From positions 1-11,988 of the IMG/VR virus record IMGVR_UViG_2737471855_000016: a stretch of 11,988 nt of DNA; one strand, 5' to 3'. The notes beneath the pieces are model-generated. The model had not been told where the DNA came from and did not search any database. It was given only the letters and a program-made list of their open reading frames with translations. The translations under genes and the position numbers were made by a program. Every line of letters starts with the position of its first letter. Position 1 is the first letter of the stretch. Positions 1,328-6,136 of the stretch are shown piece by piece. Origin of the DNA: a virus. Taxonomy: Duplodnaviria > Heunggongvirae > Uroviricota > Caudoviricetes.

Positions 1328-2566
1328 ATGTCGGTAAAGCCATTAACCGTGACTGAAGTTAAGGGGATGAAACCACGTGAAAAGGACTATGCCGTTTATG
1401 ATGGGTTCGGTTTATTGCTGAATGTGAGTAAAGCCGGTGGGAAAGTGTGGCGTTTCCGTTATAGCCATCCGATAACGAAGAAACGGCAGACATACACGAT
1501 AGGACGTTTTCCTGAATTCTCACTCGCGGAAGCACGGGAAGTACGTGATGAACTTCGGCGAATGATTGCACGTGGAGTTGATCCAGTGACGGAGAAGAAA
1601 AATCGTAAAATTGAGATGTCACTAAAAAATCTACAGACATTTGAAGCTGTTGCTAATGCATGGTTCGCTTTTAAAAAGGGATCTGAATTGCGGAAACCTA
1701 CGCTGTATAATATCGAATATGAAGTATACAAATATCTTGTTCCTTTCTTTGGTAAGTACAGTATAGAAAAAATTACAGCACCAGTAGCTATTAATGCTCT
1801 GGATGCCGTATCCGATAAGAATGCGTTGCAAAAAAAATTAATATCAAGATTAAATGAAATTATGAATTATGCTGTAAATTGTGGAACATTGAAAACAAAT
1901 CCATTACTTAAGATAAAGACTGCATTCACAGGAAAGAAAAATAAATCATTAGCAGCACTACCTGTTGAAAGATTGCCTGAATTTCTGAGCTGGTGGGATA
2001 GTGTGCCTCATACCTATCAAATAGCTCATAATGCACTTTTATTCCAGATATTGACAATGGTCAGGCCAGGTGAGGCGATTAAAGCAGAGTGGTCAGAGAT
2101 TGATTTTGATTCTGGCTTGTGGATTATCCCCGCGCATAAAATGAAATGCCATCGTGAACATGTTGTTCCCTTGTCATCACAGGCTATTAGTATCCTCAGA
2201 ACAATGCAGGAAATAAAAAGAGGGCGTTATGTGTTTTTTTCCTCCAGAACAAAAGATGCGCCTATGGGGAGGAATACTATCAAGACCCCAATTGCTGCCA
2301 GCAAGTTCAAAGGGATTGTAACGTTACATGGTTTTCGTTCAATGTGGAGTACGCTTTTAAATGAGGAGGGATTTAACCCCGATGTAATCGAGGCTGCATT
2401 GGCGCATAAAAGTGGTGATAAAATAAGAGATATTTATAATAGAACTATTTATCTAGAACAGCGTAAGATCATGATGCAATGGGTCGGTGATTTTTTTGAT
2501 GATGCGAGAAAAGGGGTAATTAATAGATCCGGTGGTATGAAAGGTTTAAGAGTTGTAAATGGTTGA
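1328..2566 (+). CDS. int: Tyrosine site-specific integrase, P4/CP4-57 type
   Basis: 412-aa ORF with the P4-type N-terminal arm-binding pattern (KDYAVYDGFGLLLNVSKAGGKVWRFRY) and the C-terminal catalytic region (HGFRSMWSTLL...IRDIYNR). SD-like GAGGG lies 6 nt upstream of the ATG. Confidence 0.93.
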   Translation: MSVKPLTVTEVKGMKPREKDYAVYDGFGLLLNVSKAGGKVWRFRYSHPITKKRQTYTIGRFPEFSLAEAREVRDELRRMIARGVDPVTEKKNRKIEMSLKNLQTFEAVANAWFAFKKGSELRKPTLYNIEYEVYKYLVPFFGKYSIEKITAPVAINALDAVSDKNALQKKLISRLNEIMNYAVNCGTLKTNPLLKIKTAFTGKKNKSLAALPVERLPEFLSWWDSVPHTYQIAHNALLFQILTMVRPGEAIKAEWSEIDFDSGLWIIPAHKMKCHREHVVPLSSQAISILRTMQEIKRGRYVFFSSRTKDAPMGRNTIKTPIAASKFKGIVTLHGFRSMWSTLLNEEGFNPDVIEAALAHKSGDKIRDIYNRTIYLEQRKIMMQWVGDFFDDARKGVINRSGGMKGLRVVNG

Positions 2567-2579
2567 GGAGGTTCAGCAA

Positions 2580-2783
2580 ATGAATACCAATGAAGATATT
2601 TTATTTACTAAAGACGTAATGAAAATCTTGCGATATGGAGCAATGAGTGCATTCATCAATTTCTGGAAAGATGAGAATAATGGTTTTCCTCAGCCGTTCA
2701 GAATTGGACGACGACATACCTGGCACCGTAGAGATGTAGAAGCATGGTTAGATAAACAACGAGAACAAGCCAATCCCCACTAA
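2580..2783 (+). CDS. alpA: AlpA/excisionase-like HTH regulator
   Basis: Small ORF directly after int with the AlpA/Xis-like pattern (ILRYGAMSAF...GFPQPFRIGRRHTWHRRDVEAWL). A strong SD (GAGGAGG) sits 8 nt upstream of the ATG at 2580. An alternative in-frame ATG at 2559 overlaps the int stop (ATGGTTGA). Confidence 0.7.
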   Translation: MNTNEDILFTKDVMKILRYGAMSAFINFWKDENNGFPQPFRIGRRHTWHRRDVEAWLDKQREQANPH

Positions 2784-2796
2784 TAATATCTTTCAT

Positions 2797-2822
2797 ACCC
2801 CGCGTGCAATGCGGGGTTTTTT
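2797..2822 (+). terminator. Rho-independent terminator after alpA
   Basis: Stem ACCCCGC / GCGGGGT with a 7-nt loop, followed by TTTTTT. Confidence 0.7.
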
Positions 2823-2937
2823 GTATGTGAGGTAAAAAAGAAATGAATAAAAATATTGCCGTGACGGGCAAGGGTGACGCACGTCATGTAAAAAAATCTG
2901 TGATTTTCGTGATCTGGTCGTTCTGCGCTTTGATAGT

Positions 2938-3420
2938 GTGAACGTTCGCGTGGTGTATCTGAACGGCGATCCGTGGTTTGTTGCAAAGGATGTCTGCGCT
3001 GCGCTGGAACTGACCAATTCGCGTACGGCGTTGCAGATGCTTGATGATGATGAAAAGGGAGTAAATTTAACTTACACCCCAGGAGGAAATCAGAATATGA
3101 GCATTATCTCTGAGTCAGGTTTCTACAAACTAATAGCCCGTAGCCGCAAAGCAACGACGCAAGGCACATTCGCCCATCGTTTCAGTAACTGGGTATTCAG
3201 AAATGTGATACCGGGTATCAGAAAAACGGGGGCTTATGGTATCCCGTGGGGTGCATTACAGGATTTTTCCCGCCGCAAAGAGCAATACCAGATAAGTGCC
3301 AGCGAGAAGGGGAGGGCGCTACAGGCATGTAAGCGCAAAAAACGTGAACTGGAGGAAGAAGAAAAAAGGCTGATACGTGAATATCAGCCTGAGTTTTACT
3401 TTGGTGAGCGTATTCAGTAA
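2938..3420 (+). CDS. Bro-N domain protein (antirepressor-type), N-terminus apparently disrupted or frameshifted
   Basis: Strong Bro-N pattern (VRVVYLNGDPWFVAKDVCAALEL...LDDDEKGV...TPGGNQNMSIISESGFYKLI...FSNWVFRNVIPGIRKTGAY). The GTG at 2938 has no SD. In-frame codons upstream (DLVVLRFDSV) still look like the first Bro-N strand but have no canonical start. See the finding at 2843-2941. Confidence 0.75.
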   Translation: MNVRVVYLNGDPWFVAKDVCAALELTNSRTALQMLDDDEKGVNLTYTPGGNQNMSIISESGFYKLIARSRKATTQGTFAHRFSNWVFRNVIPGIRKTGAYGIPWGALQDFSRRKEQYQISASEKGRALQACKRKKRELEEEEKRLIREYQPEFYFGERIQ

Positions 3421-3576
3421 CCACACGCGGTGCTGATTATACGGTACATCGTGTTAACCGAGAAGCTACCCACCAGCAAGGCAAAATCTTCTGCTAAAAA
3501 ATGACATATAGCCCGTCGTCCGGAAAGCATGAAATTTTACAAAAATGGAAAATGAAGATTTTTATTGTGCTGGTGG

Positions 3577-3609
3577 GTAAAAACAAAAAGCGCCCCGTTG
3601 CCGGAGCGC
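3577..3609 (-). terminator. Minus-strand intrinsic terminator (distal)
   Basis: On the minus strand: GCGCTCCG, GCAA loop, CGGGGCGC, then TTTTTGTTTTT. Confidence 0.55.
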
Positions 3610-3704
3610 CCTTGCGAACAATTAACCTGCTGCGAAAAAATTGGATCAGTGCAGGGGAATTATATCAACTGTGTGAAGAAGCGCCACAATTGCCGGATAA
3701 CAGG

Positions 3705-3733
3705 CAAAGAAAAGGCCACCTGTCACGGTGGCC
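3705..3733 (-). terminator. Minus-strand intrinsic terminator (proximal) after the lipoprotein ORF
   Basis: Perfect 7-bp stem GGCCACC / GGTGGCC with a 6-nt loop, followed on the minus strand by TTTTCTTTG. Confidence 0.65.
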
Positions 3734-3863
3734 CTTCAACACAAATTGCGCGTTATCCCCAACGCATGAGCATCGCCAACAATGCCATATTTGCGGCTGG
3801 TGGGCAAAGCCTGAGCGATCCTGTGATTACAGGAACTACGGCATTGTCTCGGTTAGGTAGTGC

Positions 3864-4016
3864 TCAACTTTTTTTCAACTCTACATCGCAAGCACGCCGT
3901 AATAAATCGCCCTTATCGTTTGAGCAAAGACTATTTTTCTCAAAGCATGATATTAAGAGAAAGATTGTGATAATTAAAGCAACCATCATTGGTACATGTT
4001 TTTTTAATTTTAACAT
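3864..4016 (-). CDS. Small predicted lipoprotein (50 aa), not in the ORF track
   Basis: Manual minus-strand translation gives MLKLKKHVPMMVALIITIFLLISCFEKNSLCSNDKGDLLRRACDVELKKS: basic n-region, hydrophobic h-region and an L-I-S-C lipobox. AGGAG sits 6 nt upstream of the ATG. It lies 54 nt downstream of the RHH gene ending at 4071 and is followed by two terminators. Confidence 0.5.
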   Translation of the reverse strand: MLKLKKHVPMMVALIITIFLLISCFEKNSLCSNDKGDLLRRACDVELKKS

Positions 4017-4070
4017 CTTTTACTCCTATGATTGCCGCCGCGATTCCCCACACCACGGCGCTGGTGGTTT

Positions 4071-4376
4071 TTATTCTGATTCTTTGGCCTTGCGGCGCTG
4101 TAGTTCTTCACGAGCGATGGCGATAAGTTGCCCGAGTTCTTCCGTAGCTTTAATACCAATTTTTTCCACTTGCGCCAATGCATCGAGAGAAGAAATCAGA
4201 GGATTTTCACTGCTTCCTTCTGCTTGGCGGCGGGCGATCTCCCCGCGCATGGCGGTTACTATGAATCCGGCGTTGCTTTCGCCGTCCAGTTTTACGGATT
4301 CCATGCCATCAAAAGCATCATGTGGGATACGAATTGAAATCTGTTTTGATTTGTCGTTGATAGTGTTTTTTGCCAT
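4071..4376 (-). CDS. Arc/Mnt-like ribbon-helix-helix DNA-binding protein (101 aa), paralog 1
   Basis: N-terminus KSKQISIRIPHDAFDGMESVKLDGESNAGFIVTAMRGEI matches the RHH strand-helix-helix pattern. The start is taken at the second ATG (4376), spaced 6 nt from AGGAGA; the ORF-track start at 4415 has no SD. The C-terminal tail RRKAKESE is shared with paralog 2. Confidence 0.75.
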   Translation of the reverse strand: MAKNTINDKSKQISIRIPHDAFDGMESVKLDGESNAGFIVTAMRGEIARRQAEGSSENPLISSLDALAQVEKIGIKATEELGQLIAIAREELQRRKAKESE

Positions 4377-4398
4377 GTGCATTCTCCTAAACAAAAGA

Positions 4399-4475
4399 TG
4401 TGATTCAGTATACACAAAAAAGAATCACAAAAAACACTTTACCTGTGATTCAGTTGAATTTAATTTAAATCACAC
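4399..4475. promoter_or_regulatory. Promoter/operator region of RHH paralog 1 with TGTGATTC / GAATCACA inverted repeats
   Basis: TGTGATTC at 4399-4406 and 4444-4451 with inverted partners GAATCACA at 4422-4429 and AATCACA at 4468-4474. A minus-strand -10-like TATACT is the reverse complement of 4407-4412. The -35 is not convincing. Confidence 0.5.
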
Positions 4476-4500
4476 CTCAGTAAGAGGATGTAAACGACAA

Positions 4501-4532
4501 CGCCCCGAACTGTTTGCGGCAGTAGCGGGGCG
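4501..4532 (-). terminator. Candidate minus-strand terminator/hairpin separating the two RHH units
   Basis: GC stem CGCCCCG / CGGGGCG with an 18-nt loop; on the minus strand it is followed by TTGTCGTTT, a weak U-tract. Confidence 0.35.
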
Positions 4533-4652
4533 TCTAACCAAACCATTAATTGAGGTAACGATTATGGCTATAAAAGAGCATAGCTTACTCTTTATACACA
4601 CACAAACGCCCCGGAAACGGAATAATCCGTTTCATAGTTCGGTTTTGTGCAC

Positions 4653-4880
4653 TCATCCTGGCGGTCGGTTTTTGCCGGATTTAAGCCGCCGTGGGTATTT
4701 ATCGACAAAATCTTCAAGGGCAAATTTTTCTGGTGGCACTAAGCGCGGCGCTGGTGGTGGTATTTTTGTTCTGGTTAGTTCTTCCTCAAGTCTGGCGCAG
4801 GCTTCTGACTGCCTTTGCCGGATGATTTCATCATCTTGCGTTTGCGTGTCTTGTATTGGTGATAGTGTGTTGTTGGTCAT
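4653..4880 (-). CDS. Hypothetical protein (75 aa), second gene of the RHH paralog-2 unit
   Basis: ORF with an AGGG SD-like motif 6 nt upstream, 57 nt downstream of the RHH gene at 4938-5117. Acidic N-terminus and a Pro-rich segment (PPPAPRLVPP). No family recognised. Confidence 0.55.
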   Translation of the reverse strand: MTNNTLSPIQDTQTQDDEIIRQRQSEACARLEEELTRTKIPPPAPRLVPPEKFALEDFVDKYPRRLKSGKNRPPG

Positions 4881-4937
4881 GATACTGCCCTGTAAAGCAA
4901 TGCGCCGTAGTACCTCACACCACGGCGCTGATAGTGA

Positions 4938-5117
4938 TTATTCTGATTCTTTGGTCTTGCGGCGCTGGCGGCGTTTGATCTCGCCTCGCATGGCTGTAAC
5001 GATAAATTGCGCAGTGCTCTCGCCTGTTTCTTTTACTTGCTCCATAGCCTCAACAACTTCATGCGGGGCGCGAGCCTGTAATTTCTGTGATTTGTTATTG
5101 ATATGGTCTCTTTCCAT
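4938..5117 (-). CDS. Arc/Mnt-like ribbon-helix-helix DNA-binding protein (59 aa), paralog 2; below the ORF-track size cutoff
   Basis: Manual translation gives MERDHINNKSQKLQARAPHEVVEAMEQVKETGESTAQFIVTAMRGEIKRRQRRKTKESE. From memory it is strikingly similar in pattern to P22 Arc (strand, helix A, G-x-S turn, helix B). An AAGGGA SD-like motif lies upstream. It is divergent from the replication operon. Confidence 0.7.
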   Translation of the reverse strand: MERDHINNKSQKLQARAPHEVVEAMEQVKETGESTAQFIVTAMRGEIKRRQRRKTKESE

Positions 5118-5138
5118 TTCTGGTTCCCTTTGTGATTA

Positions 5139-5217
5139 CTGGAATCCAGTATACACGAAAAAGACCAAAACAAAACGCTTGAAGTGGATTCCACTTAGTG
5201 ATTATACTGGAATCCAG
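5139..5217. promoter_or_regulatory. Divergent promoter/operator region between RHH paralog 2 and the replication operon
   Basis: Near-palindromes CTGGAATCCAG (5139-5149, 5207-5217) and GTGGATTCCAC (5185-5195). Plus-strand candidate promoter: TTGAAG (5179-5184), 18-bp spacer, TATACT (5203-5208). Minus-strand -10-like TATACT is the reverse complement of 5148-5153. Confidence 0.5.
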
Positions 5218-5313
5218 CTGAGTGTTTATCACTCAATGCAAACGAGGCTGAAAAGGATTGCCGTCCTTTCGCAGCCTCTGACCACCAACGATAGCGAAAG
5301 TATCGAGGTAGCT

Positions 5314-5517
5314 ATGAGAAATCATATCACACACCCGCAAGGGCGGGACTCACACAACCTGAATAAATACATCTGGCGTTTTATCGCCCTGAGCACGGCA
5401 CAACCGCGCGTAATCCACATCGAGGCCACCAGCGAACAGGAAGCACGCCAGCAATCCCCGGCTGGCTGCGTGATGGTATTCGCTGCCCGTATTCGTCAGG
5501 AGGTGTGCCATGCCTGA
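5314..5517 (+). CDS. Hypothetical small protein (67 aa), first gene of the replication operon
   Basis: ATG preceded by GAGGT at about 6 nt. Its stop overlaps the next start (ATGCCTGA). It shares a frame with the long spurious 3565-5517 ORF, so only this 3' segment is taken as real. Confidence 0.4.
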   Translation: MRNHITHPQGRDSHNLNKYIWRFIALSTAQPRVIHIEATSEQEARQQSPAGCVMVFAARIRQEVCHA

Positions 5518-5830
5518 CATGACCAATTACCAGTACCTGATTAATCCGCATTTTAACTGTGAGCATGATATTGCTAAAAAGGTTTATTCCGCTGCGGATG
5601 GGGCTACTAACAATATATCAATGGCTGTTGCGTCAATTGGTAGCCTGATGTGGCATGCGTCAGAAAATGAGGACTATGACGAAAAGGCCATGCGCATTGA
5701 TATGGGTAATATCGGTTTGTTACTGGCAATGCTTGGACATTTTGATATTTCGTTACGGTGCACCATTGAAAATGCCACAGATGCATTAAATGCTATAAAG
5801 AAAGCGAATACTGATTCAAATCGGGGATAA
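5510..5830 (+). CDS. Hypothetical protein (106 aa)
   Basis: Strong SD (AGGAGG) 6 nt upstream of the ATG; translationally coupled to the upstream ORF. No family recognised. Confidence 0.7.
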   Translation: MPDMTNYQYLINPHFNCEHDIAKKVYSAADGATNNISMAVASIGSLMWHASENEDYDEKAMRIDMGNIGLLLAMLGHFDISLRCTIENATDALNAIKKANTDSNRG

Positions 5831-5836
5831 ATAATC

Positions 5837-6136
5837 ATGAGAACGTATTTATCTGGCTTGACTGCCAGCGGTTATGCACACCCTAAAATTGTCCCCGGCG
5901 CTATTTATCTGGATAAGAACGGTAACAGAGTAACGGTAAAAAAACTGATGTTTGACCGTGTGTATTTTATCCGTGATGGCTATTCATTTCTTAGTTCGCT
6001 GAACGTGGAGATCTTTATTTGCAGATTCCGGCGGGAAATCCCGACTTTCAGAAATAACCGTGTGTCACGTGTGGATGTGGATAAAAAACTACAGGAACTG
6101 AAAAACATGATTGCCGCGTGGAGAGAGCAGAAATGA
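5837..6136 (+). CDS. Hypothetical protein (99 aa)
   Basis: GGGGA SD-like motif upstream; its stop overlaps the primase start (ATGA at 6133-6136). Confidence 0.6.
   Translation: MRTYLSGLTASGYAHPKIVPGAIYLDKNGNRVTVKKLMFDRVYFIRDGYSFLSSLNVEIFICRFRREIPTFRNNRVSRVDVDKKLQELKNMIAAWREQK

Follow-up and report, generated by a model that had tools for sequence, protein, structure and literature searches.

A 50-codon reading frame behind the regulator gene of an Escherichia coli phage satellite as a candidate for an exported envelope peptide

The virus record IMGVR_UViG_2737471855_000016, of which the stretch of 11,988 nucleotides analysed here is referred to as the window, carries on its minus strand an open reading frame (ORF) of 50 codons (3864..4016, stop codon included) which is probably a real gene. 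The sequence of the window is found with 100% identity in E. coli RM10410 (NZ_CP042350.1). In the explanation that best accounts for the whole of the data, and which we hold with roughly balanced confidence, the ORF is a cargo gene of a satellite of the phage-inducible chromosomal island (PICI) type, is co-expressed with a regulator of the YlcI/YnfO family and encodes an exported peptide acting at the cell envelope. By sequence the gene is an orphan; in kind it belongs with the small envelope peptides that mobile elements are known to encode. Searches of Pfam, PHROGs, NCBIfam and PADLOC gave nothing significant for the peptide.

The ORF starts with ATG and its product is MLKLKKHVPMMVALIITIFLLISCFEKNSLCSNDKGDLLRRACDVELKKS. 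The N-terminus includes three lysines (K3, K5 and K6), followed by 19 uncharged residues and then by L-I-S-C24. Codons 1-23 (3948-4016, minus strand) would specify a signal peptide and codons 24-50 (3867-3947, minus strand) a mature part of 27 residues with a net charge of +1, including Cys24, Cys31 and Cys43. The translation initiation region (4017..4027, minus strand) consists of the Shine-Dalgarno (SD) sequence AGGAG at 4023-4027 and a 6-nt spacer, TAAAAG, ahead of the ATG; the SD is exposed, not sequestered, in the predicted RNA fold. A first-pass annotation, made from the sequence alone, had described this ORF with its basic N-terminus, hydrophobic core, LISC lipobox, three cysteines and well-spaced AGGAG, and all of these are indeed present; its estimate of about 26 mature residues was one short.

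The window contains 216 ORFs of at least 30 aa starting with ATG, so that an ORF of 50 codons is unremarkable on its own, and this ORF alone among them passes the lipobox rule. Random Markov-2 windows of the same size served as the chance baseline and gave 0.70 lipobox-rule ORFs per window but only 0.027 when an SD was also required. The lipobox by itself is thus near chance level, while its combination with an SD has p ~0.02.

Six protein alleles and one stop-loss variant were found among E. coli genomes, IMG/VR, assemblies and one metagenome contig, the six alleles being spread over at least 20 loci. The search for homologues in related satellites, which the first-pass annotation had proposed, yielded alleles linked to the regulator gene in every locus examined. 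The IMG/VR search gave six loci, including one new allele, and the metagenome scan one locus with an allele already known. An exhaustive phmmer search of 1.84 billion representative proteins gave two clusters only, and a word-indexed protein search only the identical protein. There was no peptide match by tblastn in 50,697 phage records or in 72,556 plasmids, nor in two scans of GTDB representatives.

The first-pass annotation had raised the possibility that the frame might be broken in close homologues, but it is open in all six alleles, and the sole indel is an in-frame deletion of 3 nt. The initiation block AATCATAGG(A/G)GTAAAAGATG followed by ATG is common to all alleles, even where it lies beside unrelated upstream sequence. 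Also shared are C24 (invariant across the in-frame deletion as well), F25, E26, K27, L30, C31, D37, the motif LRRACD and a C-terminal K-S. The hydrophobic core and all three cysteines are kept throughout; between two allele classes there are 23-26 differences in the first 66 coding nucleotides and the core is still hydrophobic.

Since the classical signatures of coding sequence are absent, we ran a random-substitution simulation at the observed densities as a neutral test, scoring an open frame, a hydrophobic core and three cysteines. The chance of keeping all three features was 0.011, 0.078 and 0.12 in three lineages. When the in-frame deletion and the constancy of the initiation block are added, the comparative pattern favours selection on a translated product whose signal peptide is loosely constrained.

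Several observations weigh against this reading. The dN/dS of the ORF is ~1 or above, and its variable columns are distributed 21/17/12 over the three codon positions, with no wobble signature. Its codon-usage score is neutral (-0.03), against +0.12 to +0.26 for real genes nearby. ORF-like DNA is rare, occurring in 18 of 5426 complete E. coli genomes, while the neighbouring non-coding module is present in 783. The RefSeq annotation of RM10410 made by the Prokaryotic Genome Annotation Pipeline (PGAP) omits the ORF, which the first-pass annotation had called unannotated, although other gene callers report the 50-aa form on 43 contigs. Finally, in E. coli AREA_492 (L007, 2414-2677) the stop codon TGA has become TGG, giving an 87-aa read-through product which is found on 17 contigs and carries a RefSeq annotation (WP_266177826.1). 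Two further points concern the product: the lipobox rules are failed by five of the six alleles, four having LKSC and one LLTC, and the AlphaFold model of the peptide, two helices of low confidence, is uninformative.

These observations bear most directly on the alternative that the ORF is untranslated and its openness a by-product, the segment being conserved because the regulator transcript has a structured 3' region or for the sake of a stop-free frame on the plus strand (3556-5517), an alternative which we consider unlikely but the most serious of those weighed here. Besides the dN/dS value, the lack of a third-position excess, the missing PGAP call and the stop-loss allele, it is favoured by the similar codon-usage scores of the ORF frame and of the antisense frame (-0.03 and -0.02), and by the antisense frame itself, which contains no stop where 17.5 are expected and is open in 17 related loci. 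Moreover, the cassette-specific 3' untranslated stretch (3804..3863, minus strand), which folds with the neighbouring module (z -2.2), is better conserved than the ORF. Against it, requiring the antisense frame to remain open in the same simulation raises the chance of keeping the features of the minus-strand ORF only 1.3- to 2-fold (to 0.020, 0.107 and 0.157). In addition, the SD-ATG block is the sole upstream element kept across unrelated upstream sequences, the single indel of 3 nt maintains the frame, and replacements preserve both the hydrophobic core and the three cysteines.

If the ORF is translated, export of its product is the next question. The standard lipobox is [LV] at -3, [ASTVI] at -2, [GAS] at -1 and C at +1; variants exist, with the Cys invariant (PMC8048626). 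The LISC of the window allele passes both the PROSITE PS00013-type rule and the G+LPPv2 pattern; among control sequences, the lipoproteins Lpp, EcnB and lambda Rz1 also pass, whereas HokC does not. The term "textbook" used for the lipobox in the first-pass annotation is therefore apt for the window allele and not for the five with LKSC or LLTC. In all six alleles, lysines occur within the first 8 residues (K3 being universal), followed by an uncharged stretch of 13-19 residues ending at -3 or -1. The hydrophobic stretch between lysines measures 13-16 residues in four alleles, a length that suits the h-region of a signal peptide rather than a transmembrane anchor; where the uncharged stretch between two lysines is only 13 residues, as in two alleles, a Hok-like anchor would not fit.

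Lipidation is argued for by the invariant Cys24 directly after the h-region, by the residues ahead of it (-3 is always Leu, and -1 is Ser in all alleles but one, which has Thr) and by the lack of a c-region such as signal peptidase I substrates possess. Pfam LPAM models gave no match at E values up to 1-10, a weak negative. On balance, lipidation of the window allele appears slightly favoured, and it would be less likely for the family than for this allele. Whichever model is taken, the last 27 residues would be exposed to the periplasm, an environment in which oxidation of C31 and C43 is possible.

In every locus examined, the peptide ORF follows a same-strand YlcI/YnfO gene at a distance of 36-54 nt, which varies with the regulator allele. 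In the window the regulator gene (4071..4376, minus strand) encodes 101 aa (NF041551, 2.8e-18; phrog_6522, 2e-57; RefSeq WP_001107606.1). The spacer between the two genes (4028..4070, minus strand) can fold into a hairpin (-15.2 kcal/mol, z -1.1) with a Chi site in it. As no U-tract follows on the minus strand, this hairpin is no terminator, and no minus-strand terminator separates the regulator and peptide genes. The peptide would therefore be made whenever the regulator is made, rather than being held off, and this arrangement points away from the tightly controlled, possibly toxic expression suggested in the first-pass annotation.

The promoter region of the unit contains three copies of an operator-like repeat, TGTGATTC, two direct and one inverted (4399..4454). 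A second YlcI/YnfO gene in the window is preceded by three copies of a different box, TGGAATCCA, and the regulator of another island (L014) by three copies of GTGCGATTCA. Such allele-specific repeat sets would fit an immunity-type regulator, and together with the position of the gene they support a regulator role for the YlcI/YnfO protein; in related islands this gene is transcribed divergently from the icd/replication genes. The first-pass annotation had called the protein a ribbon-helix-helix (RHH) repressor. Its linkage to the peptide holds in every locus, but the RHH fold is only weakly indicated: the match to the Pfam family PSK_trans_fac, an RHH family of the antitoxin type, is sub-threshold (E 0.017), and the structural model (pLDDT 71) has a short N-terminal segment followed by two helices. 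There was no PDB sequence match and no Foldseek hit for the regulator, and the satellite literature searched lists YlcI/YnfO genes with no role assigned.

Downstream of the peptide gene, two strong minus-strand hairpins with U-tracts, T1 and T2, correspond to the tandem terminators seen in the first-pass annotation and begin ~125 and ~250 nt past the peptide stop codon. T1 (~3703-3737) has an 11-bp stem (centroid -19.4 kcal/mol, z -3.1) and a UUUUCUUU tail, is conserved with loop changes in the alignment of the module, and is the likely end of the regulator-peptide transcript. T2 (~3578-3615; centroid -20.4 kcal/mol, z -3.7) is kept over ten loci with one compensatory pair change. It may serve as a back-up to T1 or else mark the 3' end of a distinct RNA of ~70 nt, since a perfect extended -10, TGATATAAT, lies between T1 and T2 (3659-3667) and is invariant in 14 aligned copies of the module. 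The ~70 nt of conserved sequence from the extended -10 to T2 (3578-3667, minus strand) are a candidate small RNA, which would be antisense to the start of the stop-free plus-strand frame and has no Rfam match.

In the model that we propose, the peptide gene would be the second gene of a unit transcribed from the YlcI/YnfO promoter to T1 and would be translated from its own strong SD, so that the peptide would be present together with the regulator in the resident, uninduced state. The product would be a pre-peptide of 50 residues with an N-terminal signal peptide of the Sec type, whose hydrophobic core of 13-19 residues is probably too short in some alleles for a stable membrane anchor. In the window allele, the canonical LISC would lead to processing by Lgt and LspA and to a lipopeptide of 27 residues, for which the Phe at +2 suggests, with some uncertainty, an outer membrane location. 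The invariant C31 and C43 may then close a loop by a disulfide bond in the periplasm. By analogy, the role would be exerted in the envelope of the carrier cell. An envelope role is favoured because the peptide would combine an exported, disulfide-capable mini-domain with regulator co-expression and cassette-like turnover. The version favoured here is exclusion of incoming phage or rival satellite DNA through binding of a receptor or channel from the periplasmic side; superinfection exclusion was among the options named in the first-pass annotation. This specific role is drawn from analogy, and we regard it as a tentative and rather doubtful proposal.

A bolder version, which we think quite improbable, would make the 27-residue peptide a new and unusually small class of exclusion factor, located in a Chi-flanked swappable cassette under a satellite immunity regulator and blocking a receptor or DNA entry from the periplasm. 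Its gene would be antisense to a selectively maintained leader frame of 650 codons feeding the icd/replication operon, and both strands of the same 150 bp would be separately constrained, one by the peptide and the other by obligatory ribosome transit.

A literature search combining PICIs with lipoproteins or superinfection exclusion gave, among the 15 best matches, only reviews of a general kind and work on other systems. Should the peptide be produced and have its action at the envelope, it would add to phage satellites a cargo type which is a sequence orphan and easily missed, in a slot directly behind the regulator gene and apart from the known defence hotspots. Such a cargo could account for cases in which single strains resist particular phages or rival satellites, and with 27 mature residues the peptide would be a ligand for an envelope target that is very small and open to chemical work. 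The ORF also illustrates that genes of ~50 codons are dropped by standard annotation.

The closest functional parallels are small phage lipoproteins with an intramolecular disulfide, Llp of T5 and Cor, which block FhuA from the periplasm, a mechanism proposed to extend to other TonB-dependent transporters (PMC9586334). Like Llp and Cor (of phi80, T1 and N15), the peptide would be a small pre-lipoprotein of a mobile element, with a hydrophilic mature part and two further cysteines, expected at the periplasmic face of the outer membrane. Its mature part is however only 27 residues long, whereas at least 58 are implied for Llp by the numbering Cys11-Cys58 (PMC9586334). It shares no sequence similarity with these proteins (no PHROG, Pfam or NCBIfam hit), its lipobox is canonical in only one of the six alleles, and its gene lies behind a satellite regulator, unlike llp and cor, which lie beside a receptor-binding protein gene.

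For expression in the resident state, other systems can be compared. In phage lambda, the accessory genes rexAB follow cI and are expressed in lysogeny. The gene for Ltp of Streptococcus thermophilus phage TP-J34 is likewise found in the lysogeny module (PMC3952083). The peptide gene resembles both as an accessory envelope gene in a lysogeny or regulator module. It differs in that Ltp, a surface lipoprotein of a Gram-positive system, is far larger and RexB is a polytopic membrane protein, the peptide being homologous to neither, and in that its host element is a satellite of the PICI type.

Hok/Gef toxins (PF01848) have the same length as the peptide, 50 residues, and like it begin with a basic segment that leads into a hydrophobic helix and end in a periplasmic tail where a Cys follows K-x-L; both are carried by mobile elements. 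These likenesses, including the K-x-LC motif, together with the weak PSK_trans_fac match of the regulator, underlie a second alternative: a membrane-active toxin, Hok/Gef-like or other, for which the RHH-like protein or an antisense RNA would be the antidote and which would serve for post-segregational killing, abortive infection or lysis. A promoter-like site on the plus strand (3947-3974) and a hairpin (4051-4068) antisense to the 5' end might encode such an RNA, but they occur in the window only: both are absent in L005, L006, L007 and L010, and the hairpin is weak (-6.3 kcal/mol, z +0.6). Sequence comparison is also unfavourable. No allele had a PF01848 hit at E values up to 10 while seven true Hok sequences all hit, and hhalign against Hok gave a probability of 11.5% over 10 columns. 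The hydrophobic segment is shorter than that of HokC (13-16 residues in four alleles versus 20), and the hydrophilic mature part, with a net charge of -1 to +1, would not form an amphipathic lytic helix. The genetic arrangement differs as well. No conserved antisense RNA was seen, and no separate long-leader transcript is evident because the ORF starts 36-54 nt after the regulator gene; the peptide gene lies instead in an operon behind a regulator, and its strong, exposed SD and co-transcription with a constitutively needed regulator would be ill-suited to a toxin. In the great majority of islands, moreover, the regulator is present without the peptide. We consider a toxin of this general kind improbable, and less likely than an untranslated segment.

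Three narrower candidates were rejected. A type I toxin-antitoxin (TA) system was discarded in view of the weak antisense promoter-like site and T-run hairpin, unconserved in other alleles, and membership of Hok/Gef on the failed profile tests. A type II TA pair was dismissed since 783 genomes have the regulator family and the module but only 18 the peptide, the slot elsewhere holding an unrelated basic protein; PADLOC, Pfam and NCBIfam gave no toxin hit for the peptide.

A third alternative is a release or lysis lipoprotein serving the satellite, comparable to the colicin lysis proteins (bacteriocin release proteins) or to an o-spanin. Colicin lysis proteins are pre-lipoproteins of 45-52 aa with a mature part of ~28 aa. 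The peptide matches them in size, and the window allele has a canonical lipobox; more generally, colicin lysis proteins and entericidins A/B are likewise very small pre-lipoproteins (41-52 aa, mature part 21-28 residues). The mature part of the peptide differs in being highly charged and possibly cysteine-bridged, and is not amphipathic or Gly/Ser-rich. The first-pass annotation had pointed to lysis proteins and entericidin-like toxins as typical classes for a peptide of this type, but the searches linked it to neither of these, nor to Hok or any defence family; in particular, there was no hit to Lysis_col, to entericidins or to any PHROG lysis family. The genetic context is also different: the island has no partner i-spanin, holin or endolysin, and the gene is part of the regulator unit and not of a late or packaging operon. 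With a lipobox that is non-canonical in five of the six alleles in addition, a release function is very improbable, the weakest of the three alternatives.

The exported envelope peptide thus remains our preferred reading, and the element that carries its gene is a phage satellite of the PICI type. The island, of ~11 kb, is located between pgrR and mppA and includes genes for an integrase, an AlpA-like helix-turn-helix protein, a frameshifted BRO-N protein, two YlcI/YnfO proteins, an Icd-like protein, a DUF4222 protein, a primase, a single-stranded DNA-binding protein and a protease/major-capsid fusion. This content matches the PICI gene set described in PMC13612085. Integrase, AlpA-like regulator, primase/replicase, a size in the range of ~10-15 kb and insertion between host genes were all found, and related islands occupy other sites. 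The BRO-N gene (2843-3420) is annotated in RefSeq as frameshifted in the window island and in L004, and is intact in L005, L006, L007 and L015.

In most related islands the slot behind the regulator gene holds, instead of the peptide ORF, an unrelated basic protein of 57-75 aa (MTDK...RFAPCAFALEQFLKEY), an alternative cargo that is far commoner than the peptide. Its gene is found in the window at 4653-4880 (minus strand), in L014 at 2736-2909 and in L015 at 2917-3114, and the protein has no family in Pfam, PHROGs, NCBIfam or PADLOC. The window itself has two tandem regulator-cargo modules (4101-4912), one composed of the 101-aa YlcI/YnfO protein and the peptide, the other of a 59-aa YlcI/YnfO protein and a 75-aa basic protein. 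With respect to L004 this represents an insertion of 812 bp, bounded by a repeated 3' end of the regulator gene. As each regulator has its own operator-like repeats, the arrangement suggests a dual immunity specificity.

The comparison with L004 is also informative for the cargo. Identity is 97.5% overall across 1340-4100 of the window, but the peptide ORF differs at ~22% of positions (33/150). A Chi site is present at each edge of the cassette on the plus strand, one distal (3796..3803) and one on the regulator side (GCTGGTGG, 4060-4067, within the spacer hairpin). The divergence of the ORF in an otherwise 97.5% identical region and the Chi sites at both cassette edges point to an exchange of cargo alleles, probably by homologous recombination.

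The flanking non-coding module (~3578-3810), the one present in 783 E. coli genomes, contains a nearly invariant block of 50 nt (3756-3805; TTATCCCCAACGCATGAGCAT.GCCAACAATGCCA.ATTT.CGGCTGGTGG), in which the distal Chi site lies; the remainder of the module is 77-97% identical. No meaningful phage match was found for the 3' region, either as a cos site or as phage-derived sequence, and Rfam gave nothing credible over the window, including no C4/CI-type RNA.

Two features that overlap the locus are more unusual than the peptide. The first is the stop-free plus-strand frame (3556-5517), which begins near T2, spans 650 codons and stops where the Icd-like gene ends. The peptide ORF, both YlcI/YnfO genes and the 75-aa gene all lie antisense to this frame and share one phase relative to it. 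It has no stop (17.5 expected), against 40 and 37 in the other two plus-strand frames. In 17 distinct loci (L002-L012, L014, L016, L017, L023, L024 and L026), the corresponding frame extends without a stop over 334-765 codons, whatever the cargo or regulator allele. Only its last 48 residues match a family (Icd-like). Protein coding on the plus strand over the conserved module was rejected, since the substitutions (31/34/41) show no codon periodicity and codon usage is non-coding-like (-0.02). One possibility is that the frame acts as a leader whose translation is obligatory, for instance as a safeguard against Rho-dependent polarity.

The second feature is an excess of Chi sites, of which there are 13 in the 12-kb window against 0.33 expected from shuffled sequences. 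They are located at 1989, 3470(-), 3569, 3796, 4060, 4750, 5426(-), 6946(-), 7629, 8509, 8535(-), 10601 and 10773(-). The island has 14 in 11.4 kb and the host flank 1 in 5.5 kb, and related islands carry 0.6-1.5 per kb. Around the peptide cassette, three plus-strand sites are grouped inside 500 bp and coincide with its edges. In the literature searched, Chi sites, RecBCD and PICIs came together only in a general review. The Chi-flanked cassette, the Chi excess and the stop-free frame into icd may outweigh the peptide in importance for satellite biology.

A last observation concerns the insertion sites of related islands. In L017-L022 (~5441-8153), the satellite integrase gene abuts, in several assemblies, a gene for a 408-residue GpA_ATPase product together with a Nu1 gene, which suggests that this island is inserted in the large terminase gene of a lambdoid prophage.

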